Below, in pieces: positions 1,455-64,000 of a stretch of DNA of 64,000 bases (its first letter is position 1; every line of letters begins with the position of its first letter). A program made the translations under genes and the position numbers. Below the pieces are notes generated by a model, which was not told the origin of the DNA, did no database searches, and saw only the letters and a program-made list of their open reading frames with translations. Where the stretch lies: positions 19,346,001-19,410,000 of the forward strand of contig NC_086097.1 in assembly GCF_963921235.1 (NCBI RefSeq), in the 5' to 3' direction. This DNA is from Mobula hypostoma (taxonomy: Eukaryota).

Positions 1455-2199
1455 TTGGTATGTATACATGTATCTATCTATCTACTTGTCTATCGATCTA
1501 TCAACCTATTGTGACAGGAGATACCTAAAAAAGTGGCCAACATACAGCTAGTAAGCCTGTATGTTGATTTCTATTAAAAGAGGTTAAGGTCCACCCAGGT
1601 TAACAACAGCCCACTTATGGACAGCCAGTATGTACAGAGAACATAGAACCCAGCACGGTACAGGCCCTTCTGCCCACAATGTTGTGCCAACCTTATAATC
1701 TACTCCAAGATCAATCTAGCCCTCCCCTCCTACATGGCCCTCCATTTTCTCCATCATCCATGTGCCTATCTAAGAGTTTCTTGAATCTCCCTAATGTAAC
1801 TGTCTCTGTCACCACTCCTGGAAAGGTGTTCCACGCACCTACCGCTCTCTGTGGAAAAATTACCTAACTTCTGACATCTCCTCTATACTTTCCTCCATTC
1901 ACCTAAAATGCTGCCGCCTTGTGGTAGCCTTTTCTGCCCTGAGGAAAAAGTCTCTGCCCATCCACCCAACCTCAGCCTCTTACCATCCTGTAGTGCAATC
2001 ACTCGATTTGGGTATCATGTTCTCCTAAGGAGTTATCTATTGGTGTGTTATTAGTCCTCACAATCCTGCCCCCTTCGCCACCTCTCCAGTTGTTGATTGT
2101 CATGGGACTTAATCCAGGATATTAGGGAGGATTCCCTTAATAGAGTTTTTAATGTGAGGAGCCGAGGCACAAGTGTATAGGGAAGCCATCTTGAGTATT

Positions 2200-2507
2200 T
2201 CTATCTAATCACCCCTCATCCTGCTTAACTCCAAAGGGAAAAACCCTTGTTTACTCAACCTATCCTCATAGGACACGCTCTCTAATCCAGGCAGCATCCT
2301 GGTAAATCACCTCTGCACCCTCTCTAAAGCTTCCACATCCTTCCTATAATGATGTGATCAGAACTGAACTCAATATTCCAAGTAAGGTCTAACCAGAGTC
2401 TTATCGAGGTGCAACATAACCTCACGGCTCTTGGACTCAGCTCCCTGATAAATAAAGGCCAGCACACCAACTGCCTTCTTAATAATCCTGTCAACTTGTG
2501 CAGCAAC
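2200..2507 (-). mobile_element. CR1-clade LINE ORF2 C-terminal fragment
   Basis: ORF 2370..2699 ends in AAQVDRIIKKAVGVLAFI...LVRPYLEY, the conserved CR1 ORF2 C-terminal region. Confidence 0.75.
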
Positions 2508-2944
2508 AGATGAATCAGTTTCAAAATCAGAATTTTTTTGAAATCTGTCATTTTGTGGCAGCAGTACAGTGCAAAACATTAAAAAAATAACAGTTACAGT
2601 AGATAGTAAATAAATAGTGCAATGGAGGAATAACGAGATAGTGTTGATGGACTTTACAGAAATCTGATAGTGGAAAGGAAGAAGCTGTTCCCATAACATT
2701 GAGGGTGGGTCTTTAGACTCCTGTACTACCTCCGCAATGGTAGTAATGAGAAGAGGGCATGTCCTAGATGCTGCTCGTCCTTAGTGATGGATGCCATCTT
2801 CTTGGGGCACTGCCTTTTGAAGATGTCCTCAGTGGAGCCAATCCATCTCACTCCTGCACACACGAAAAGATCTGCAGATGCTGGAACACACATAAAAGTT
2901 GCTGGTGAATGCAACAGGCCAGGCAGCATCTCTAGGAAGAGGTA

Positions 2945-2982
2945 CAGTCGACGTTTCAGGCCGAGACCCTTCGTCAGGACTA
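2945..2982 (-). ncRNA. Minimal type-I hammerhead ribozyme motif
   Basis: Minus strand reads UAGUC-CUGACGA-A-GGGU-CUCG-GCCU-GAAAC-GUC-GACUG. Confidence 0.65.
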
Positions 2983-3079
2983 ACTGAAAGAAGAGCTAGT
3001 AAGCCTGCTGCGTTCACCAGCAACTTTTGTGTGTGTTGCTTGAAATTCCAGCATCTGCCTTACTAGCTCTTCTTTCAGT

Positions 3080-3117
3080 TAGTCCTGACGAAGGGTCTCG
3101 GCCCGAAACGTCGACTG
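3080..3117 (+). ncRNA. Minimal type-I hammerhead ribozyme motif, best-preserved copy; predicted cleavage after C3112
   Basis: UAGUC (stem I), CUGACGA (3085-3091), A, GGGU/CUCG/GCCC (stem II), GAAA (3105-3108), C, GUC, GACUG (stem I'). Palindromic ACGU occupies stem III, as in dimer-acting minimal PLE hammerheads. Confidence 0.72.
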
Positions 3118-3219
3118 TACCTCTTCCTAGAGATGCTGCCTGGCCTGCTGTGTTCACCAGCAACTTTTGTGTGTGTTGCTTGAAATTCCAGCATCTGCCT
3201 TACTAGCTCTTCTTTCAGT

Positions 3220-3257
3220 TAGTCCTGACGAAGGGTCTCGGCCCGAAATGTCAACTG
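3220..3257 (+). ncRNA. Minimal hammerhead motif, second tandem copy with two CpG-type substitutions
   Basis: CUGACGA...GAAAU-GUC-AACUG; differs from the 3080 copy at C3249T and G3253A. Confidence 0.55.
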
Positions 3258-6200
3258 TACCTCTTCCTAGAGATGCTGCCTGGCCTACTGCGTTCACCAG
3301 CAAATTTGATGTGTCCATTTCACTCCTGTACATTTTGCTTTCTGAGATTTTGACAACAGCAGTGGTGTCATCAGCAAATTTATCGGTGGTGTTTGAGCTG
3401 TGACTACACGTGTAATAACTGTAAAGAGAACAGAGCCATAGGCGAGGCATGCATCCTTGAGGTGCTCCAGAATGGGTGGGGATAGATTTGCTGGGTGTTG
3501 CAGGACTGTAGGCATCTGCTGCCAGATGGGAATGGAACACTTCCCTGTGTCTCCTTTCCCCTCCACTTGTCACAACTATCACCTCCCCACTCCCTACTCC
3601 CACCCCACAAGCCACAATAAGTGGGGGCGGGGCCAAGCTGGACAGAGCTGGGATCAGACCCGCTCGCCCACTCACTCACTCATTCGGTCAGTGTAATTCT
3701 TCCCATGCCTGCTCGTTCTCCCATCACAGCTGCTTCTCTGATCCTCCACAACACAATGTGTTTGCTCATTTCCAACTCCGGGTTACAAACAGTTCTCAGG
3801 AACTGAGAACTGCCATAACCTGGGGCCTGCCTCCACTGAGACTTTTGCTCCAGTTATAGCAGGGGTTCCCGAACTGGAGCCCATGGACCCCTTACTTAAT
3901 GGCATAAAAAAGACTGCAAAGCCTGCTCTGAAATACTGTGTATGTCTCTCATCTCTATACATAAGGAAGGATAAACCTGCAGTGACAGGACAACAGTGAA
4001 GATTGATTCCTGGGCGGCCAATTAATTAGTAAATTGGAATATTAGTTTATTATTCTCATGTACCTAAGTGCAGTGAAAATCTTTGTCTTGCAAGGCACCT
4101 AGACAGATCATTTCATTACATTGGTGCATTGTGGTAGTACAATAACAAAATGCTGAATGAAGTGTTAATGGACCAAGTGCAGGGCAAGGAAACAATAAGG
4201 TGCAATGTCATAAACAGGTAGATTGTGAGGTCAAGAGTCTACCTCTTTGTACCGGGGGAACATTCAAAAGCCTCATAACAATAAAGGGCTAGAGAAGAAG
4301 GAATCTGATTGGACAGGAGAATGGACCTTGGGGGAAAGGGAAGGCAGCGTAGGCCTGGCGGTATGTGATAGGCAGGTGAGAGGACAGAATGGAGAATAGA
4401 AGAAGAGGGGAGGGGAAGGATTATTTTTTACTGGAAGGGGAAACCAATATTCATGCTATCAGGTTGGCGGCTACACAGATGGAATATATGGTGCTGCTCC
4501 TCCACCCTGAGGATGGCCTCACCTTGGCACAAGAGGAGACCATGGACCAACATGTCGGAACAGGAATGGGAATGGGAATGGGAATTAAGTGGCCATAATG
4601 TTGCTATTCTGAGATAGTGATTAAGGATGTGCAGGATGGTTCAAGGGTGAAGTGTTTGAAGGGAAGTAGCTCGTGGTGTGGGACTTCAGGATTCTGTACC
4701 TCCTGCCTGATTTTAGCTGGGAGAAGATGGCATCGCCCGGATGGTGGGGATTTTTTATGATGGATGCAGCCATTTTGAAGCAGTGCCTCATGAAGATATT
4801 TATAATGATGTTGGGGGGGGGGGAATAAGTCTGTAATGTATTGGGCTGCAGATTTCCATCATTTTCTGTCTTTATAATGAAGAGGGGGATTTTAATTCTA
4901 CCTCGCCAATAGGAAGAATGCACCCTACCCCATGTCATGTCCTAACTCAACTGATCTGACATAGCTCTCAAGAATAACATTTGCTATATTATTTATTATC
5001 TCTCTATGTTCTGTAAGATCTTATTTCTTTACAGTATATAAAAATCCTTTAGATTTTTCCTGACATCTCTGCCTTCTGGCATTGGGGAATAATATCACAG
5101 TCCCTCATTTTCACCAATTCAGGAGAAAGTGATACAATTGGAGAAAGTAAGCAGGGCACTAGCTGTAAAAAACTCAGAGAAAAGGAACAGAGTGCACATA
5201 TGAGGATCTTTACAAACTGTGTTGAGAATGGGAGATGACGGAAAAGGCAATGACAGGGTTTTGGTTCTGCAGAGAACTGAGAGGGTAACTATGCAAGAAT
5301 TGCTCGGAACATCGCCTAGGACCCTCAGCATATGGGACATGCCCTCTTTTCATTATTGTCATCAGGCAGGAGGTACAGGAGTCTGAAGACCCACACTTAG
5401 TGATTCAGGAACAGCTTTATCCCCTCTGTCCTCAGATATCTGAACGGCCCATGACCATTTTAGATAACTCATTCCAGAAAAGATTAAGGGTATAGAAAAT
5501 AAGATGTCACATGATTCAAAAGATGGCAATGGAGGAGAGAATTTTTAATTATAATGAGATGTTTAAAAAAGTAAGATAGCATTCCCATAATAGAATGGAT
5601 TGAGGGGAAATTTGCAGTCAGTATTCAGAGTGAAAGATAATTTTCCTTGATCAACTGTGAAAATAAATTTAGAATTCAGGTTAACTAAGGAGGCGGGAGA
5701 GGTTTTTTAAGAGTCTGCAGAATATTAGTGTTACTGTGCCTTGAAGCTGACTTTTACAAAGGAACCAGATGTATCGGAATATTTTTTAAAAGACGCAAAT
5801 TTCCTATAATATCGTTCACAAGTTCACATCCTTTTTAGAAAATTCAAAGCACTCTGCATCTTAAACAGGGCTCTTGGCAATACAGTCAATGTTATAGGAA
5901 AATGGGCAAACTGTATACAACAGACTCCCAGACATCAAAATAACCAGATAACTTGCTGCAGGGATATCAGTATCAGAACCAGAATCTGATTTATTATCAC
6001 TAACTTATATGATGTGAAATTTCAGCAGTACAGTGCAAAAACGAAAAAATTACTATAGCCTATAAAAAATACATTAATAGTGCAAAGAAATTAAATAGCA
6101 AGATAATGTTCATGAGGTCTTGGACCATTCAGATATCTGATGGTGTAAGGGAAGATGCTGATTGTGGATCATTGAGCGTGGGTTTTCACTTTCCTCAATG

Positions 6201-18034: not shown

Positions 18035-18415
18035 TACACAAACAACAGAGATTCTGGGAATCTCAAGCAACACAAACAAACTACTGGAGGAATTTGGCAA
18101 GTCAAGCAGCATCTGTGGCGGGGAGCAAACTGCCGACATTTCAGGCTGAGGTCTTTCATCAGGACTGGAACGGAAGGGGGCAGAAGCCAGAATAAAAAGG
18201 TGAGGGAGGAGAAATACAAGCTGGCAGATGAAAGGTGAGCCCAGGTAAGGGGGAATGTGTCTGGGCGGGGGAAGAGAATGAAGTGAGAAGCTGGGAGATA
18301 ATAGGTGGAAGAGGTAAAGAGCTGAAGGAATCTGATAGGAGCGGACAATGGACTAGGGATGAAATAAAGGTGGTAAGACACCAGAGGGAGGTGCTGGGCA
18401 GGTTAGGAGAACAAG
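18035..18415 (-). mobile_element. PLE-derived non-autonomous 3' fragment with a degenerate hammerhead at 18130-18167
   Basis: Pyrimidine-rich body followed by CAGTC-CTGATGA...GAAA on the minus strand; same organisation as the PLE at 58967-59400. Confidence 0.65.
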
Positions 18416-19850: not shown

Positions 19851-20849
19851 TATAACCAGTAAGGTTATAGTTCAGATCTGGTGGTAAATCTAAAACATCA
19901 ACTGTCCATTTCATTCTGGAGAGGCTGCCTGACCTGCCAGTTTCCTGCAGCATTATGTGTGTTGTTCCACATTCCAGTATTTCCAATCTCTTGTGTTTCC
20001 ACCTGGCCAATCAAACTGTGTGAAGATTACATAGGCAGAAAACTTGTGGAAAAGTTCTGGTCTAAGTTATAAGACAATAGAGAGATGGAATCGGAATTGA
20101 ATTGGAATTGGTTACTATTGTCACATGTACCACGACAGAGTGAAAAGCTTGTCTTGCATACTGTTTATACGGATCAAATCATTACTCAGTGCATTGAGGT
20201 AAAACAAAGGAGACAGTGATAATACAAAATAAAGTGTAACAAGCTCAGTACATGTGACAATAATAAACTAATTTATTTACCAATTTTAAAATCAAATGTG
20301 ACTCAGCTATTGCTATTGAGTCAAAAGCTTGTAGACTCGATTCCCAGTCTGAGGCGTGAACACAAAATTCTCAGTATTGGTATTGGTTTTGGTTTATTAT
20401 TGTCACATGTACTGAGATACCGCTTGTCTCACATTCTGTTCGTTCAGGTCAAATCATTACACAGTGCATTGAAGTAGAACAAGGTAAAACAATAACAATG
20501 AAGAATACATCTACAAAGAAAGAGAAGTGCAGATAGGCAATAAGGTGCAAGTGTGATGGTGTTGGGTTTGCTGACCGTGCAGTTCTAAACTCAAAAAGAA
20601 GACCCGAAGCCGTATCCAGTATACAGCAGATAGCACAAATATTCTCACTAAAGGGAGGTTATACTGTAACTACACAATCTTTAAATCAAGTTCTCTCCCC
20701 TGCATTTTTCTCCATGGTAAGTTTAGCTGCCAATACCCACTATTTGAGGAGTGAATCCCCTCCCAACCAAGGAGAAGATACTTCCAACTGACAAAGTAGT
20801 TTAAAACACACTTCATTTAACCTGTGCATCTGAACTGAAATTTGCATCT

Positions 20850-33834: not shown

Positions 33835-34490
33835 AGCACAAGGAAGTCTGCTGATGCTGGAAGTCCAAAGCAAACACACAAAATGCCGGTGGAAATCAGC
33901 AGGTCAGGCAGCATCTAGGGAAATGAGTGAACAGTCAACATTTCCAGCTGAGACTCTTCTTCAGGACTGGAAAGGAAGGGGGAAGATTCCAGAACAAAAA
34001 GGTGGAGGGGGGAAGGGAAGGAAGATAGCTGGAAGGTGATAAGTGAAGCCAGATGGGTAGGAAAGATAAAAGGCTACAGAGGAAGTTACCTGATGGGAGA
34101 GGAGAGTGACCCATGGGAGAAAGGGAAAGAGAAGGGGACCCAGGGGAGGTGATAGGCAGGTGAGAAGAGGTAAAAGGGTAGAATGTGGAATAGAAAGGGG
34201 AGGAGGGAAAAATCTTTTTACCAGAAAGAGAAATCAATATTAATGCCATCAGGTTGGAAGCAGCCCAAATGGAATATAAAGTGTTGCTCCTCCACCCTGA
34301 GGGTGGCCTCATCATGGCACAAGAGGAGGACATGGATCGGCATGTTGGAACGGGAATGGGAAATGGAATTAAACTGTTTGGCCACTGTGAAGCTCCACTA
34401 TTGGCAGATGGCGCGGAGGTGCTCGACGAAGCGGACCCCCAAATTACAACGGGTTTCACCAATGCAGAGGATGCACTTCAGGAGCACAGA
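33835..34490 (-). mobile_element. PLE 3' part: degenerate GIY-YIG C-terminus plus terminal repeat with a hammerhead at 33932-33969
   Basis: Homologous to 58700-59400 (CHDEATLRVEEQHFIFHLGCFQPDGINIDFS on the minus strand). A further fragment lies at about 4290-4595. Confidence 0.8.
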
Positions 34491-36260: not shown

Positions 36261-38405
36261 AACTGCTCTGAATTGGTGGACTGGGCTGTATACAGGGATT
36301 CATCTTCAAATCTGGATGAGTATGCCACAATTGTTACTGTTTTCATTAGAACCTGTGTGGATGAGTGTGTGCCTACGAAAACTTGCTGTACATCCCCAAA
36401 CCAAAAGCCGTGGATGAACCAGGAGGTTCATCATCTGCTGATGGCTAGATCTGCAGCATTTAAGTCTGATGACCCAGGTCCATACAAGAAAACCAGGTAT
36501 GATTGCAGAAGGGTCTCAGCCCGAAATGTCAGCTGTACTCTTTTCCACAGATGCTGCCTGGCCTGCTGAGTTCCTTCCGCATTTTGTGTGTGTTGCCTGG
36601 ATTTCCAGCATCTGCAGATTTTCTCTTGCTTGTAATTTGTGGAGGGCTATTTCAAGAGCGAAGAAACAATTCCAAGTGAGGTTGGAAGCGATGTCAGATG
36701 TACATCAATTCTGATGGGATTTGCAGAATATTACTTCCTACAAAGTGAAACCCAAAAGCATAAATGGCAGCAATGCTTCACTACCAGATGAACTCAACAC
36801 CTTCTATGCCCGCTTTGAAAGGGAGAATACAACCACAGCTGAGAAGATCCCTGTTGCACTGGTGACCCTGTGATCTCTGTCCCGGAGGTTGATGTCAGGT
36901 TGTCTTTCAGGAGGGTGAACCCTGACGAGGCAGCAGACCCCAATAGAGTAGCTGGTAAGGCTCTGAAAACTTGTGCTAACCAACTGGAGGAAGCATTCAA
37001 TGACATTTTCAACATTTCTATGGTCAGAATTTCCCACCTGCTTCAAAAGGGCAACAATTATACCAGTGCCCAAGTAGAGTAGAGTCAGCTGCTATTGTCC
37101 AGTAGCACCAAATGTACAGTGATGAACTGGTTTGAGATGTTGGTCATGGCTCAAATCAACTCCTGACCCATTGAAATTTGCCTATCACCACAATAGATCT
37201 ACAGCAGATGCAACCTCAATGGCTCTTCACATGGCCTTAGACCACCTGGACAACACAAAACCCTATGTCAGGATGCTGTACATTGACTATAGCTCAGCAT
37301 TTAACACGATCATTCCCACAACCCTGATCGATAAGCTACACAACCTGGGCCTCTGAACCTCCCTCTGCAATTGGATCCTCCACTTCCCAACTAGAAGGCC
37401 ACAATCTGTGCAGATTGGTAATAATATCTCCTCCTCACTGACGATCAACACCGGCGCACCTCAGGGATGTGTGCTTAGCTCACGGCTCTATTCACTGTAT
37501 ACTTATGACTGCTAGGTATAGCTCAAAGGTCATCTATGAATTTGCTGATGATACAACCAGATGGAGATGAGACGGCATATACCAGCTAGTTGAGTGGTGT
37601 CACAGCAATAACCTGGCACTCAACGTCAGTAAGACCAAAGAGCTGATTGTGGACTTCAGGAAGGGTAAGATGAGGGAACATGAACCAACCCTCATAGAGG
37701 GATCAGAAGCAGAGAGAGTGAGCAATTTCAAGTTCCTGGGTGTCAAGATCTCTGAGGATCTAGCCTGGTCCCAATATATCAATGCAGCTATAAAGAAGGC
37801 AAGACAACGGCTATTTTTCATTAGGGGTTTGAGGAGATTTGGTTTGTCAACTAAAACACTCAAAAACTTCTGTAGCTGTACCATAGAGAGCATTCTGACA
37901 GGCTGCATCACTGTTTGGTATTGGGGGGTGAGGGTCTACTGCACAGGACTGAAAGAAGCTACAGAAAGTCATAAAATTATTCATCTCCATCTTAAGTACT
38001 AGACTCTGTAGTATCCAAGACAACTTCAAGGAGCAGTGCCTCGGAAATGTGGTATCCATCATTAAGGCTGACCCATCACTCAGGATGTGTCCTCTTCTCA
38101 TTGCTACCATCAGGTAGGAGATACAGGAGCCTGAAGGCACACACTCAGCAATTCAGGAGCAGCTTCTTCCCCTCTGCCATCCGATTTCTAAATGGACGTT
38201 GAACCGATGAACACTACCTCACTTTTTTTATGTTTTCTGTTTTTGCACTATTTTTAATTTAACTATTTAATATACATATATTTACCTACTGTAATTAATT
38301 TACTTATTTATATTTTTTCCATACTATCATGTATTGCAATGTACTGCTGTTGCAAAGTTAACAAATTCCATGACATATGCCGATGATATTAAACCTGATT
38401 CTGAT
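36261..38405 (+). mobile_element. Rex1/Babar-like LINE, about 2.1 kb, with a PLE tail inserted at about 36500-36632
   Basis: ORFs 36273..36569 (NQKPWMNQEV), 36870..37082, 37132..37356 ([12 protein letters not shown]...[13 protein letters not shown]) and 37649..38002; tail ATTAAACCTGATTCTGAT. Confidence 0.9.
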
Positions 38406-40914: not shown

Positions 40915-42270
40915 AGAACATAGAGATCTACAGCACATTATAGTCCCTTCAGCCCACAATGTTGTGCTGACCCATGTAACCTACTCTAGAAACTGCCTGG
41001 AATTTTGCTACCGCATAGCCCTCTATTTTCCTAAGCTCCATGTACCTATCTAAGAATCTCTTAAAAGACCCTGTTGTATCTCTTCCACCACCACCGCCGG
41101 CAGCCCATTCCACACACCCACCACTCTCTGCATGAAAAACTTACCCCTGACATCCCCTCGGTACCTATTTCCAAGCACCTTATCACTATGCCTCCTCGTG
41201 TTAGCCACTTCAGCCCTGGGAAAAAGCCTCAGGCTATCCACACGATAAATGCCTCTCATCATCTTATCCACCTCTCATCCTCCATCTCTCCAAAGAGAAA
41301 AGACCAAGATCACTCAACCTATTCTCATAAGGCATGCTCTCCAATCCAGTCAACATCATTGTAAATCTCCTCTGCACTCTCTCTATAGTATCCACATCCT
41401 TCCTGTAGTGAGGTGACCGGAACTGAACATAGTACTCCAAATGGGGTATAACCAAGTTCTTATATTGGTGTAACATTACCTCAGGGCTCTTGAATTCAAT
41501 CCCATGGTTGATGAAGACCAACACACCACACACCTTCTTAACAACACTGTCAGCCTGTGCAGCAGCTTTGAATGTCATATGGACATGGGCTCCAAGATCT
41601 CACTGATCCTCCACACTGCCAAAAGTCTTACCATTAATATATATATTATATTAACAAGGTAGTCTCCAGCCCCTTGGTATGAACATAGAATTCTCCAACT
41701 TCTGGTAATTCCCTCCCCCTCCCTTCCCCTATCTCTATCTCACTCTGCCCCCTCCCCCAGCTGCCTATCACCTCCCTCATGGTTCCGCCTCCTTCTACTA
41801 CCCATTGTGCTTTACCCTATTCCTTCTTCACCTTTCCTGCCGATCACCTCCCTGCTTCCCCTCCCCCACCCCTTTTATCTTCCCCCTGACTGGTTTTTCA
41901 CCTGGAACCTACCAGCCTTCTCCTTCCCACCCTCCCCCCCCACCTTCTTTATAGGGCCTCTGCCCCTTCCCTCTACAGTCCTGACGAAGGGTTTCAGCCC
42001 GAAATGTTGACTGATTGTTTCCACAGATGCTGCCCGACCTGCTGAGTTCCTCCAGTGTGTTGTGAGTGTTGCTTTGACCCCAGCATCGGCAGATTATTTT
42101 GTGTTTATATTATATTAAACTTGACCTAGCAAAATGAACCACTTCACACTTATCTGGGTTGAACTCCATCTGCCAATTCTCAGCCCAGTTCTGCATCCCA
42201 TTGATATCCTGCCATTACCTCTGACAACCCTCTAGACTATGCACAACACCCACAACTTTTGTGTCATCTT
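40915..42270 (-). mobile_element. CR1-clade LINE 3' part, interrupted by a plus-strand PLE tail (about 41655-42105; hammerhead 41976-42013)
   Basis: ORFs 41264..41578 and 41050..41271 are CR1 ORF2 C-terminus. The insert contains CAGTC-CTGACGA-AGGGTTTCAGCCC-GAAATGTT-GACTG. Confidence 0.85.
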
Positions 42271-42744
42271 TGAACCAACACAGGCTCTTTGCCAGCCGGC
42301 CATCAACCACCTCCTCCTCACAGGTCTGGCACCTCTAGCTCACCTGAGAGCCTTTAACTAGCAAGGGAAATGAAGTGGGTGGGTTTAACCAGCTCTTCAG
42401 ATCTGGTGAGCCGGGGTGGATTGTACGCTGCATGGGTGAAGCAGAGCAAGCATCCGAACGGTAGCAAGGGGGCTGACCTTCTCTGTGTAATCCAGGCCTG
42501 TAGCTGAGGCAGAAGGAACTGGAATTCCCCAGTATGACCGGAATGCAGATTCCCCCACTTGGAAGATAAAAATGTTACTTAATTTCTACTTACTTTAAAT
42601 CTTTAAGAAGTATTTATTAGTGTTTTAACATGGTTTAAATATTAAACATTTTAATTGCAATGAACTTTTTAGCTTTTAAGTGTCATGGTATGAGGTTTAA
42701 AAACTCTTAAAGTCTCAGTGACTCCGGTGGGAGGAAAAGCTCCG

Positions 42745-43065
42745 ACCCAAGTGTTGCTTCCTGTCATTGGCTCTCAGGGAGAAGTGGGGGCGGGTCCACG
42801 GCAAGTCTAACCCAAGTGTTGCTTCCTGTCATTGGCTATCGGGGAGAAGTGGGGACGGGTCCACGGCAAGTCCAACCCAAGTGTTCCTTCCTGTCATTGG
42901 CTCTCAGGGAGAAGTGGGGGCGGGTCCACAGCAAGTCTAACCCAAGTGTTGCTTCCTGTCATTGGCTATCGGGGAGAAGTGGGGACGGGTCCACGGCAAG
43001 TCCAACCCAAGTGTTGCTTCCTGTCATTGGCTATCGGGGAGAAGTGGGGGCGGGTCCACGACAAG
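42745..43065. repeat. Tandem repeat, 5 x 65 bp, in A-B-A-B-hybrid order
   Basis: Units start at 42745, 42810, 42875, 42940 and 43005 (ACCCAAGTGTTGCTTCCTGTCATTGGCT[C/A]TC[A/G]GGGAGAAGTGGGG[G/A]CGGGTCCACGGCAAGTC[T/C]A). Confidence 0.95.
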
Positions 43066-58600: not shown

Positions 58601-59402
58601 AGAAAAGAAAATATTCAGGGCCCCAAACAGTCCTTCCAGGTGAGGCAACACTTCACCTGTGAGGCGACTGGGGTGATATACTGCGTCCGGTGCTCCCGAT
58701 GTGGCCTTTTATATATTGGCGAGACCCGACGCAGACTGGGAGACCACTTTGCTGAACATCTACGCTCTGTCCGCCAGAGAAAGCAGGATCTCCCAGTGGC
58801 CACACATTTTAATTCCACATCCCATTCCCATTCTGACATGTCTATCCACGGCCTCCTCTACTGTAAAGATGAAGCCACACTCAGGTTGGAGGAACAACAC
58901 CTTATATTCCGTCTGGGTAGCCTCCAACCTGATGGCATGAACATCGACTTCTCTAACTTCCGCTAAGGCCCCACCTCCCCCTCGTACCCCATCTGTTACT
59001 CATTTTTATGCACACATTCTTTCTCTCACTCTCCTTTTTCTCCCTCTGTCCCTCTGAATATACCTCTTGCCCATCCTCTGGGTCACCCCCCCCACTTGTC
59101 TTTCTTCCCGGACCTCCTGTCCCATGATCCTCTCGTATCCCCTTTTGCCAATCACCTGTCCAGCTCTTGGCTCCATCCCTCCCCCTCCTGTCTTCTCCTA
59201 TCATTTTGGATCTCCCCCTCCCCCTCCAACTTTCAAATTCCTTACTCACTCTTCCTTCAGTTAGTCCTGACGAAGGGTCTCGGCCTGAAACGTCGACTGC
59301 ACCTCTTCCTACAGATGCTGCTTGGCCTGCTGCGTTCACCAGCAACTTTGATATATGTTGCTTGAATTTCCAGCATCTGCAGAATTCCTGTTGTTTGCGT
59401 TT
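58601..59402 (+). mobile_element. Penelope-like element, 5'-truncated: GIY-YIG endonuclease C-terminus plus terminal repeat, 15-bp TSD
   Basis: ORF ending at 58966 FTCEATGVIYCVRCSRCGLLYIGETRRRLGDHFAEH...VATHFN...QPDGMNID. TSD GAAAGAAAAGTTCAA at 58586-58600 and 59403-59417. Confidence 0.93.
59262..59299 (+). ncRNA. Minimal type-I hammerhead ribozyme motif in the PLE 3' repeat; predicted cleavage after C59294
   Basis: UAGUC-CUGACGA-A-GGGU-CUCG-GCCU-GAAAC-GUC-GACUG, sense to the GIY-YIG ORF. Confidence 0.7.
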
Positions 59403-60798
59403 GAAAGAAAAGTTCAAGTTTTTTCCTTCTCTTCTTTATATCTCAGCTAGGACAGTAGAGATGTCAGGCAGGATAGTGCAATCCTCCTCTTGTGTGATAT
59501 GGGAATGCAAGGAGACCTCCAGTATCCCTGACTACTACAACTGTGAGATGTGCATCCAACTGGATCTTCTAACAAACTGCATTAAGGAGATGGAGCTGGA
59601 AGTGGATGAACCCCAGATCATTTGGGAGGCAGAGGGAGTGATAGATAGGACATATAGAGAGGTAATTACACCCAAAGTGCAGGACACAGGAAACAGGGTG
59701 ACAGTCAGGAAGGTGAAAGGGGTTAAGGAGCCAGTGCAGAATACCCCTGTGGCCATTCCGCTCAACAACTGGTATATCACTTTGAATACTGTCGGGGAGT
59801 TAACATAACAGAGGAAAGTCACAGTGGTCAGGTCTCTGGCACTGAGTCTGCCTTTGTGTCTCTGAAGGGAAGGAGGAAGAAGAGGCATGGTGTGGTGATA
59901 GGGGATTCATTAGTTAGGAAAATAGACAGGAGGTTCTGTGGGCAAAAACAAGATTCCCAGTTGGTGCGTTGCTTCTCAAGTGCCAAAGTCCAGGATATCT
60001 TGGATCATTGCTCAGCAATCTAAAGTGCGAGGGTGAACAGCCAGAAGTCATGGTCTATGTAGATACCGATGACACAGAAAGGACAAGTGACGAGGTTCTG
60101 CGTAGGGAGTTCAGGGAGTTAGCTGCTAAGTTAAAGGGCAGGACCTCCAAGGTTGTGATCTCAGGATTGCTACCTGTGCCACGTGCTAGTGAGGTTAGAA
60201 CTAGGAAGATTATACAGTTTAATATGTGGCTAAGGAGTTGGTGTAGGAGGGAGGGCATAAGATTTTTGGATCTTCGGTCTCTCTTCCAGGAAAGGTGGGA
60301 CCTGTACAGAAGGGACGGTTTGCACCTGAAGGGGGAATAATATCGTAGTGGGAAAGTTTATTAATGTTGCACGGTGGGGTTTAAACTAGAGTTGCAGGGT
60401 GATGGGAATCAGAATGCCAGAACAGTTTGTGGAGAGGTTGTGGAGGCAGATGTTAGTAAGACCTCAGACAAAGTTAGGAATCAAAAGGTTGAGTATGGTG
60501 CGACAAAATTGAAAAGGGTGAATGCAGGACTGAAAGTGTTGTACCTGAGTGCATGTGGTATATGGAATAAGGTAGAAGATCTTGCAGCACAGTTACAGAT
60601 TGACAGGTATTACAGATTGTTGGATGCATCAGTGAGTCATGGCTGAAAGAACGAGGCTGGGAGCTTAATGTCCAGGATATACATTCTATCAAAAGAATAG
60701 GCAGGAACGCAGAGGGGGTGGTGTTGCTCTGTTGGTAAAAAATGAAATCAAATCATTAAAAAGACATGACATAGGGTTAGAAGGTGTTGAATCATTGG

Positions 60799-61109: not shown

Positions 61110-64000
61110 TATTTTGCATCAGTCTTCATTATGGAAGACACTACCGATAGAAGATCTAGGTGTCATGGGGCATGAAGTGTAGTTACCATAACTAGAGAGA
61201 CTGTTCTTGGGAAACTGAAAGAACTGAAGGTAGATAAGTCACTTGGACCAGATGGTGTACACCTAGAGTTCTGAAAGAGGTAGCTGAAGAGATTGTGGAA
61301 GAATTAGTAATGATCTTTCAAGAATCACTAGATTCTGGAATGATTCTGGAAGACTGGAAAATTGCAAATGTCACTCCACCCTTCAAGAAGGGAGAGAGGC
61401 AGAGGAAAGGAAACTACAGGCCAGTTAGTCTGACCTCAGTGGTTATAAAGATGTTGAAGGCAATTATTAAGGATCGGGTCTCAGGGAACATGAAGGCACA
61501 TGATAAAATAGGCCATAATCAGCATTGTGTCCTCAAGGGAAAATGTTACCTGATAAAATTTTTTGGAATTCTCTGAAGAAATAACAAGCAGTATAGACAA
61601 AGGAAAATCGGTTGATGTTGTGTACTTGGATTTTCAGAAGGCCTTTGACAAGGTGCCACACATGAGGCTGCTTAACAAGCTATGAGCCCATGGTATTACA
61701 GGAAGGGCTGTAACATGGATAAAGCAGCAGCTGATTGGCAGGAGGCAAAGAGTGGAAATGAAGGGAGTGTTTTCTGGCTGCCGGTGACTAGTGTTGTTCC
61801 ACAGGGGTCTGTGTTGGGACTGATTCTTCTTAAGTTATATGTCAATAATTTGGATGATGGAGTTGATGGTTTTGTTGCGATATGAAAATAGGTGGAGGGG
61901 CAGATCGTTTTGAGGCAGTAGAGAGGCTGTAGAACCTGACAGTTTAGGGAAATGGGCAAAGAAATGGCAGATGGAATACAGTGCTGTCGTGCACATTGGT
62001 AGAAGAAATGAAAGGGTTGACTATTTTCTAAATGGAGAGAAAATACTAAAAGCAAGGGTGCAAAGGGATTTGAGAGTCCTTGTGCAGGATTCCCTAAAGG
62101 TTAATTTGCAAGTTGAATCTGTGGTGAGGAAGACAAATACAATGTTAGCATTCATTTCAAGAGTACTAAAATATAAAAGCAAAGGTGTAATGTTGAGATT
62201 TTATAAAGCATTGGTGAGGCCTCACTTAGAGTACTGTGAGCAGTTTTGGGCCCCAGGATGTCTGAAACTGGAGAGGATTCAAAGGAGGTTCACGAAAATG
62301 AATCCAGAATTGAATGGCTTGTGAAATGAAAAGCATCCGATAGCTCTAGTCCTGGATTCACTGGAATTCAGAAGAATGAGGGTGCCCTCATTGAAACCTA
62401 TCAAATGGTGAAAGGCATTGATAGAGTGGGTGTGGAGAGGATGTTTCCTATGGCGGTAGAGTCTAAGATCAAAGGACACAGCCTCAGAATAGAGGGGTGT
62501 CCTTTTAGAAAGGAGATGAGGAGATATTTCTTTAGACAGAGAGTGGTGAATCTGTGGCATTCTTTGTCCCAAGCAGCTGTGGAGGCCAAGTCTTTTTGTA
62601 TAGTTAAGGCAGAGATTAATTGATTTTTGACCAGGCCATGAAGCAATATGGGGAGAAGGCAGGAATTGGGGTTGAGAAGAAAATTGGATCAGCCATGATG
62701 AAATGGCAGAGCAGAATCGATGGGCCAAATGGCCTAATTCTGCTCCTATATCTTGTGGTCTTATTATGGACAGTTCTGGTCTCATCACTGAAGAAAGGCT
62801 AAACTTGCAATTGAGGGAGTGCTTTATTCCACCATTATAAGACTTCTGAATGGATCTCTTGTGCGATAAGATGGGTTCACGACCTCACGATATTTTTGTT
62901 ATGGACTTACACCTTATTGTCTACCTGCACTGCAGTTGTTCAATAAGTGTGACATTATATTCTGAATTCTGTTATTGTTTTTTCCTTGTACAATGACATC
63001 TTCCTCCTTCCTTTCCAGTCCTGATAAAGGGTCTTGACCTGAAACATCGACTGCATATTCATTTCCATGGATGACGTCAGACCTGCTGAGTTCCTCCAAC
63101 ATTTTGGGTGTGCTTTTGCTCTGGATATCCAGCATCTGCAGAATCTCTTGTGTTTATGGTTTACGTTTCATCAACAGATGCTCAAGTTCAGACACCTTTC
63201 TGATTTGCCACTAATGTGGATGGCCTACATTATTACTCTATCAGCAGTGTATTTTCCCACTTACTCTGTCTGTCCAAATCACACTGGAGACTCTCTACAT
63301 CCTCCACATGGTCCCAATTCCATACAGCTTTATGCAAATAACACACTTGATTCCCTCTCCTAGACATTAATGTATATTGTGAAATACTGAACCTTGTCTC
63401 CACTACCCAATAAACACATTTACCGCACAGAAAAGGACCAATTTATTCTTCCTGTCTTTTATGTCTGCCGACTTTAATTCTATGTACTTCAGTTTTATAT
63501 ACCAAGCTCTTTCTGTGGAAGTTTGTTGAAAGTCTTCAGAAAATGCCACCCACTCGGCAAGTTATATGCTGAAAAACTTGTAGTAAGTTTGATATTGAAT
63601 AATTATAGTAAGTTTGTATAAAGATAGAGTGGACATGGAGAGGAGGTTTCCGATAGTGGGAGATTCTAGGACCAGAGGGCACAACCTCAGAATACAGGGG
63701 CTTCCATTTAGAACTGAGATGAGGAGGAATTTCTTTAGCCAGAAGGTGGTGAATCTGTGGAATTCATTGCCAAGACAGCTGTGAAGTATATTTAAAGTGA
63801 AGTTTGATAGGCAGTATGTTAGCGTAGTGGTTAGCACAATGTTTCACTGACCTGGGTTCAATTTCTATCACTGCCTGTAAAGAGCTTGTACATGTAGCCC
63901 CCCCTGCTCAGCCTCAGGGTCGCCCAGCTCGCTGTAGTCTAGGGAAACAGCCCTCGGCCCCGCCAGACTGGGGAATCAGTTGGTGTGGATGCAGTGTGAT

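Follow-up and report, generated by a model that had tools for sequence, protein, structure and literature searches.

A tandem hammerhead block in the Mobula hypostoma genome reads as a one-off by-product of Penelope-like element insertion

We examined a compact block of tandem hammerhead ribozyme motifs at positions 2861-3313 of a 64,000-nt stretch of Mobula hypostoma DNA (contig NC_086097.1, forward-strand positions 19,346,001 to 19,410,000), hereafter called the window. An earlier note had described the block as a retrozyme-like array, with one inverted unit and head-to-tail 140-bp units inserted in a single event. Tandem Repeats Finder (TRF) bore out this architecture (tandem at 3003-3314, period 140, 2.2 copies, score 575), as did an inverted arm (2885-3011 against 3051-3177) that is 94% complementary across 127 nt. 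Every base of the block maps to the last 155 nt of a Penelope-like element (PLE) copy at 58613-59395. The inverted arm (2861-3003, minus strand) comprises the pseudo-long terminal repeat (pLTR) of this element (blastn 86% to 59241-59383), with a 10-bp deletion, and ends in the family tail. It is followed on the plus strand by a partial unit (3004-3058; PLE 59325-59380, blastn 91%) abutting the inversion junction at 3003/3004, a full 140-bp unit (3059-3198; PLE 59240-59380, by TRF and blastn), and a terminal unit (3199-3313; PLE 59240-59352, by sequence mapping) that carries a TTTGA allele and stops at the family's tail-less end. The head-to-tail junction, which joins PLE 59380 to 59240/59241, lies at 3048-3069 and again at 3188-3209 (plus strand, located by pattern search). 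The two arms are joined 5' end to 5' end; one runs out to the tail, and the other stops at the tail-less end.

The block is flanked by a target-site duplication (TSD) of 19 bp (2842-2860 and 3314-3332, plus strand). Its copies agree at 17 of 19 positions, differ by two transitions, and lie flush with both block edges. The chance of such a flanking repeat is about 5e-6, with 29 x 29 offsets allowed for, in line with the single insertion event proposed earlier. None of the 14 overlapping stop-to-stop frames of at least 30 aa (32-173 aa) appeared gene-like by eye, and the claimed absence of coding capacity stands. A hammerhead core is present in only two plus-strand units and absent from the third, a 30-bp stub at 3284-3313, so the statement that each tandem unit carries a hammerhead holds for units 1 and 2 only. 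These two units differ at three positions (3151, 3249, and 3253), each a CpG-type transition, of which the earlier note had listed the latter two.

A motif scan for CTGACGA...GAAA placed core starts at 3085 (+), 3225 (+), and 2977 (-), exactly as first reported. These cores were recognised via the motif described in PMC4209133, not via a covariance model; the covariance-model check that had been proposed, an Rfam scan of 1500-5000, gave zero hammerhead matches at E<=10, its four hits being hairpin or chance matches below gathering score. Hammerhead A (3081-3116, +) is of the family type and intact by motif scan and folding. It consists of stem I (3081-3084/3113-3116), core (3085-3091), stem II (3093-3104), GAAA (3105-3108), and a palindromic ACGU, with a predicted cut after C3112. 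The minimal type I motif of the inverted arm (2946-2981, -) is likewise intact by motif scan. Hammerhead B (3221-3256, +) has decayed: its stem III palindrome carries C3249T, and the first pair of its stem I carries G3253A. All features of minimal PLE hammerheads are present (CUGANGA, stem II, GAAA, palindromic 15.2/16.2, NUH, and short stem I), which agrees with the earlier assignment of the motifs to PLE-type hammerheads and of the block to PLE machinery. As in PMC4209133, stem I is short, an extra base precedes stem II, and the motifs are mostly single ones of truncated PLEs. Unlike the hammerheads described there, stem II here has only 4 bp. The head-to-tail junction lies 54 nt upstream of the cleavage site, and the caveat that the two do not coincide was well placed.

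The reference parent copy (58613-59395, +) reads as a 5'-truncated PLE with a GIY-YIG end, a 3' untranslated region, a pLTR in which the same hammerhead recurs (core 59267), and a tail. Its GIY-YIG portion spans 58619-58963 (115 aa; Pfam E=5.5e-4, 20.6 bits, below the 22.6 cut-off), and the copy has no reverse transcriptase (RT). Because it is truncated and lacks an RT, this copy, at 58601-59402 in the earlier note, could not have mobilised anything, contrary to what had been suggested. Longer family copies carry YIDD upstream, a CxxxxCxxC linker, and the same endonuclease; the linker reads CKRNKCYTC in loci L031, L053, L058, and L021. A CX2-5CxxC linker between RT and endonuclease is a Neptune/Nematis trait according to PMC8557442. 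A 302-aa RT-end fragment of L014 matched 0 Pfam families. Judged from these sequence features, the parent appears to be an endonuclease-bearing Neptune-type PLE with the layout common to Neptune and Nematis, the RT being assigned by motif.

This family is abundant. In the 3.48-Gb genome, the exact 32-nt core of hammerhead A has 6,052 occurrences and a degenerate core pattern 74,901, both being exact-pattern counts that miss more decayed copies. The figure from this one degenerate pattern is well above the 4,000-9,000 copies given for coelacanth and Xenopus (PMC4209133). Summed contig depth was about five orders of magnitude higher over cores than over unique flank, a ratio that is no measure of copy number and entered none of our estimates. 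The window also contains further, older pLTR copies (70-84% identity), which belong to related subfamilies and have decayed cores, at 18049-18166, 19893-19980, 33850-33968, 36508-36615, 41977-42074, and 63017-63139.

The block interrupts a decayed repeat (2661-3460, minus strand) that six-frame reading and repeat hits show to encode an RT, and which we take to be a long interspersed nuclear element (LINE) from its F/YADD motif. In the RT frame, the right flank KFADDT...YRSEM runs on as CRSEMDWL at the left, with the duplicated bases giving RSEM twice. The presence of RSEM on both sides of the interrupted frame confirms the block boundaries. Both outer junctions were recovered without differences in own-species DNA contigs (run X1; 2808-2907 and 3285-3900). 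They were also found in a second organism (X5, X6; 2801-2909 and 3276-3900) with 20 differences (flank, 20 of 625 bases). The insertion is therefore real, old, and older than the split from the second organism. Since then, CpG transitions have eroded the block, which has given rise to no daughter copies.

A retrozyme should be a family. We looked across the genome for the head-to-tail junction, which the earlier note had set beforehand as its refuting test, and found it at this locus only: two matches with at most one mismatch in 22 nt, both in the block. A degenerate 33-mer over the junction, with up to three mismatches, again returned two matches, both in the block. The probability of detecting a sister junction was 0.92 at 5% divergence and 0.58 at 10%. 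By DNA search, no sister locus covered the unit in one piece among the best 40 of 465 candidates; only the two units of the block matched over 1-140, and the others listed covered 55-140 or 1-55 separately. The multimer is thus no family, and its junction is private to this locus. With a junction unique in 3.48 Gb and all of its sequence plain pLTR, the block does not bear out the proposed non-autonomous ribozyme retroposon.

The layout of the block is, by contrast with its junction, common. Head-to-head core pairs at the spacing of the block number 270 and head-to-tail pairs 43, against about 25 per orientation expected from random scatter. Head-to-head arms were present in 25 of 43 loci examined. 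All 24 of the other head-to-head loci had a 9-22-bp flanking repeat scoring over a shifted-flank control, and in 23 of these 24 a tailed arm was paired with a tail-less arm. Head-to-head tailed and tail-less arms within a 9-22-bp duplication are the routine insertion form of this family.

Tandems are also common in the family. Head-to-tail core pairs total 746 in the three gap ranges searched (gaps of 43-91 nt lie outside them): 167 at gaps of 5-42 nt, 43 at 92-122 nt, and 536 at 123-400 nt, with about 31, 25, and 224 expected at random. Their periods are scattered: 43 rows contain 22 different values, and the first 100 of the 536 rows contain 70. Arrays of at least three units with private periods lie inside single TSD-flanked insertions at L037, L045, L052 (period 67), L055 (period about 43), L078, and L079. 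L045 (period 65) repeats the layout of the block, with an inverted tailed arm, a tail-less end, and a 16-bp TSD. L037 (G000:C2:12241411-12244554), a young insertion with a perfect 13-bp TSD, holds three identical 145-bp units, each containing both pLTR strands. L078 (G000:C55:76471500-76472200) has four 62-bp units with no core in the unit, and L079 (G000:C5:27282000-27282900) has six or more 61-bp hammerhead-only units at a head-to-head junction, the longest such array seen. A core-less control motif likewise gave short tandems (49 matches). Because private-period arrays occur at L045, at L037 with both strands, and at L078 without a core, tandem growth at the junction is a general by-product of PLE insertion that needs no ribozyme-made circle.

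A recurring period was considered as a sign of a family, and the only clear one was 130 (8 of 43 rows, one of them being 2 x 65). It was dismissed because the four true cases fetched (L034, L041, L053, and L057) are ordinary partial tandems. In each, a long arm ends at PLE 59359-59366 and the pLTR then restarts at 59231. The restart site and the end resemble each other, which suggests repeated insertion into the AT-rich pLTR site of the element itself.

The block very probably represents one old tail insertion of a Neptune-type PLE, arranged head-to-head, in which one piece was repeated locally and the hammerheads were passengers. They would be present simply because they are located in the pLTR. 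In this model, the PLE protein would make nicks in the two target strands, offset by about 19 nt, and both ends would prime reverse transcription, which would begin at the two internal sites described for an Anolis element. Both cDNAs would halt just upstream of the hammerhead. During joining of the cDNA ends, the growing end would switch template once, leaving 59240 and resuming at 59380, most likely on the opposite arm's template. The 140-bp step would then recur, through another such switch or through later slippage between the 32-bp direct repeats that arose from the first one.

Support for the template of the opposite arm comes from an allelic difference. The internal units and the inverted arm share a common TTTT state, and the terminal unit has TTTGA, the commonest family allele (GA 57, TA 13, and TG 1 over 73 arms). 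L045 shows the same split between internal and terminal units. This pattern, known from two loci only, argues against a single circular template and for copying off the opposite arm's template. Among simple inverted loci with one allele call per arm, six were alike and one (L045) was split, seven being too few to generalise.

Several of the closest known systems are themselves PLEs. Craig et al. 2021 (PMC8557442) describe partial tandems, inverted 5'-truncated copies, and one-sided tails. The block shares the inverted 5'-truncated copy and the tail at one end with these Neptune-clade insertions, and differs in having no coding sequence and in its tandem, a stutter of 140 bp whose junction is private. 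Opposite-strand hammerhead pairs 100-700 bp apart have also been described for PLEs (PMC4209133). For PAc, the Anolis Poseidon element (Frangieh et al. 2024, PMC11167929), two RT start sites match the tailed and tail-less end points of the block. The PAc protein cuts and extends both strands, and insertion is independent of hammerhead cleavage. PAc belongs to another clade than the PLE of the block.

Several observations weigh against the insertion model. Both-end priming is known for L1 (PMC11702581), and its application to this PLE would be an extension by analogy. Microhomology at the junction is only 1 nt, which does not account for the landing of the switch at 59380. The 5' boundary at 59240/59241 recurs three times, which a short or circular template would give likewise. 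Divergence does not resolve the timing of the steps, with unit 1 and unit 2 differing at 3 of 140 positions and the inverted arm and unit 1 at 5 of 119. Among the contig pieces listed, none spanned the inner junctions. Core-containing tandems at gaps of 5-42 nt also outnumber those of the control motif (167 versus 49, counts not scaled to the copy number of the control), and the hammerhead region could therefore favour tandem formation. Many of these very short tandems (n=167, periods 38-75) restart at the 5' strand of stem I with a palindromic junction. Microhomology in stem I may account for them without catalysis.

The monomer release proposed earlier rested on two hammerheads brought together in cis. 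A double hammerhead can be drawn by folding, with stem III pairs A-U, C-G, G-U, and U-A. Stem I is perfect at the cut after C3112, and its first pair is a C-A mismatch at the cut after C3252. Release of the 140-nt monomer is unlikely because of this mismatch. The two-site fold of 3004-3313 lies 23 kcal/mol over the minimum, rising to 104 with the inverted arm, with which hammerhead A is predicted to pair at a probability of at least 0.999. In plus-strand transcripts that include the upstream inverted arm, hammerhead A is thus predicted to be buried in a long hairpin, which also speaks against cis release. The folding model under-rates hammerhead cores, and blocking by the inverted arm is a firmer result than the 23 kcal/mol. 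The 140-nt monomer folded no better than dinucleotide shuffles (z -1.47 linear, -1.79 circular). No dataset listed as containing the sequence is annotated as RNA, which counts neither for nor against RNA products. Run X16, whose RNA type was guessed, gave only family pieces among the matches listed, from contigs unable to show absence. Luense et al. reportedly described dimer cleavage in 2017. Minimal PLE hammerheads have low activity even as intact dimers (PMC4209133).

These results bear most directly on the possibility that the block belongs to a non-autonomous retrozyme family, spreading via a self-cleaved, circularised 140-nt RNA copied by the PLE RT, which we find hardly credible. The resemblance is considerable. 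Metazoan non-LTR retrozymes (PMC7229834; bioRxiv 10.64898/2026.07.22.740005) share the non-coding tandem units, similar size, type I core, and long TSD, and a dimer fold can be drawn here. By this preprint's operational definition, an 'active retrozyme' has two or more units in succession that carry a type I core, and the block has two, of which the second has a broken pair in stem I. The preprint also traces animal retrozymes, which it records in one chondrichthyan, to pLTRs, and the block is likewise pLTR-derived. Against this, no second locus carries the junction, and the monomer is not highly self-paired relative to shuffles. The cores are minimal rather than canonical type I with loop 1/loop 2 contacts, having no stem III hairpin and a stem I of 4-5 bp. 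Site B is mismatched, and the dimer fold is costly. PLE insertion has left its marks in the inverted tailed arm and the tail-less end, and only one of nine such pLTR-like dimers cleaved in vitro in the preprint. Set beside the retrozymes of PMC7229834, the block is a single locus with minimal cores, the second decayed, within a head-to-head PLE insertion.

A single rolling-circle event, in which a 140-nt pLTR RNA circle was ligated once off the ribozyme site and read 2.2 times by the PLE RT to leave an unspread retrozyme seed, would explain the identical junction occurring twice without microhomology. Circular templates for PLE tandems have been proposed (PMC4209133), and arrays of at least three units do occur at other single insertions (L037, L045, L052, L055, L078, and L079). 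We nonetheless consider this improbable. It predicts three identical 32-bp segments, whereas the terminal copy has the other family allele at two adjacent bases. The junction lies well away from the cleavage site, and the L037 unit contains both strands, which is impossible from a circle of the sense transcript. It is very improbable that the extra 140-bp unit is an assembly artefact. The inner junctions are unbridged among the contig pieces listed, which are short and come from a very high-copy repeat. The units nevertheless differ by three CpG transitions, indicative of biological decay, both outer junctions were recovered exactly in run X1, and similar arrays occur at many loci.

Restarts at the predicted cleavage site were a separate observation. 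The 49 core-less tandem rows correspond to 42 loci after merging of neighbours (by-eye count), and in 8 of these the restart coincides exactly with GACUG, which is the predicted cut's 3' product. Five of the eight are free of microhomology ambiguity. The probability is 8e-6 for eight loci and 0.004 for five, for one position of 40 that was noticed after the fact; another restart position pair, explained by microhomology, is about equally frequent. L078, L083, L080, L081, and L082 show a tail-less arm end followed by the cleavage-product restart, some of them with an A or G added. The junctions of L078 and L083, which lie on one contig at a distance of 3 Mb, are the same. Such restarts could be traces left by cleavage in vivo and by template jumping of the RT, or else a mini-lineage. 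A genome-wide 5'-truncation peak at the cleavage site, considered as a further sign, was not supported: 7 of 99 truncations fell there against about four per position (P 0.10; first 100 of 3,935 matches, by eye, with one row dropped as a slippage insertion), and P was 0.54 with the CpG-ambiguous neighbour pooled. For PAc, PMC11167929 reports no RNA ends at the hammerhead site and cleavage that is dispensable in vitro, and leaves in vivo cutting open. Our literature search found no work joining PLE hammerhead cleavage-site truncation with template jumping.

A more speculative view, to which we give limited credence, is that PLE machinery routinely yields hammerhead tandems (the 746 pairs) that are retrozyme seeds at birth, the block being one that died. 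Local tandem seeding by pLTRs has already been proposed (bioRxiv 10.64898/2026.07.22.740005). The cleavage-site restarts (8 of 42 loci; several carry an additional base that looks untemplated, and one is a four-unit array) would then record cutting by the minimal hammerhead in vivo, with RT jumps that leave the cut 5' end and land on the next RNA at its internal start site.

Two other features of the window were observed. A promoter-like minisatellite at 42741-43065 consists of a 65-bp unit repeated five times (92% matches) and contains CCAAT-like and GC-box-like words. Directly behind the PLE copy, at about 59430-60500, lies a repeat that by eye resembles the ORF1 (esterase-type) region of a CR1-like LINE.

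Taken as an insertion product, the block is a one-off by-product of PLE insertion and not a retrozyme, another example of a known insertion type. The locus is ordinary, one among many complex PLE insertions. Its value is as a worked example of a two-hammerhead pLTR tandem that arose without a ribozyme cycle. Pipelines that label every tandem with two cores an 'active retrozyme' will give inflated counts where the genome is rich in PLEs. The family itself is a resource: with about 75,000 cores, it offers hundreds of junctions in which to test cutting by the minimal PLE hammerhead in vivo.

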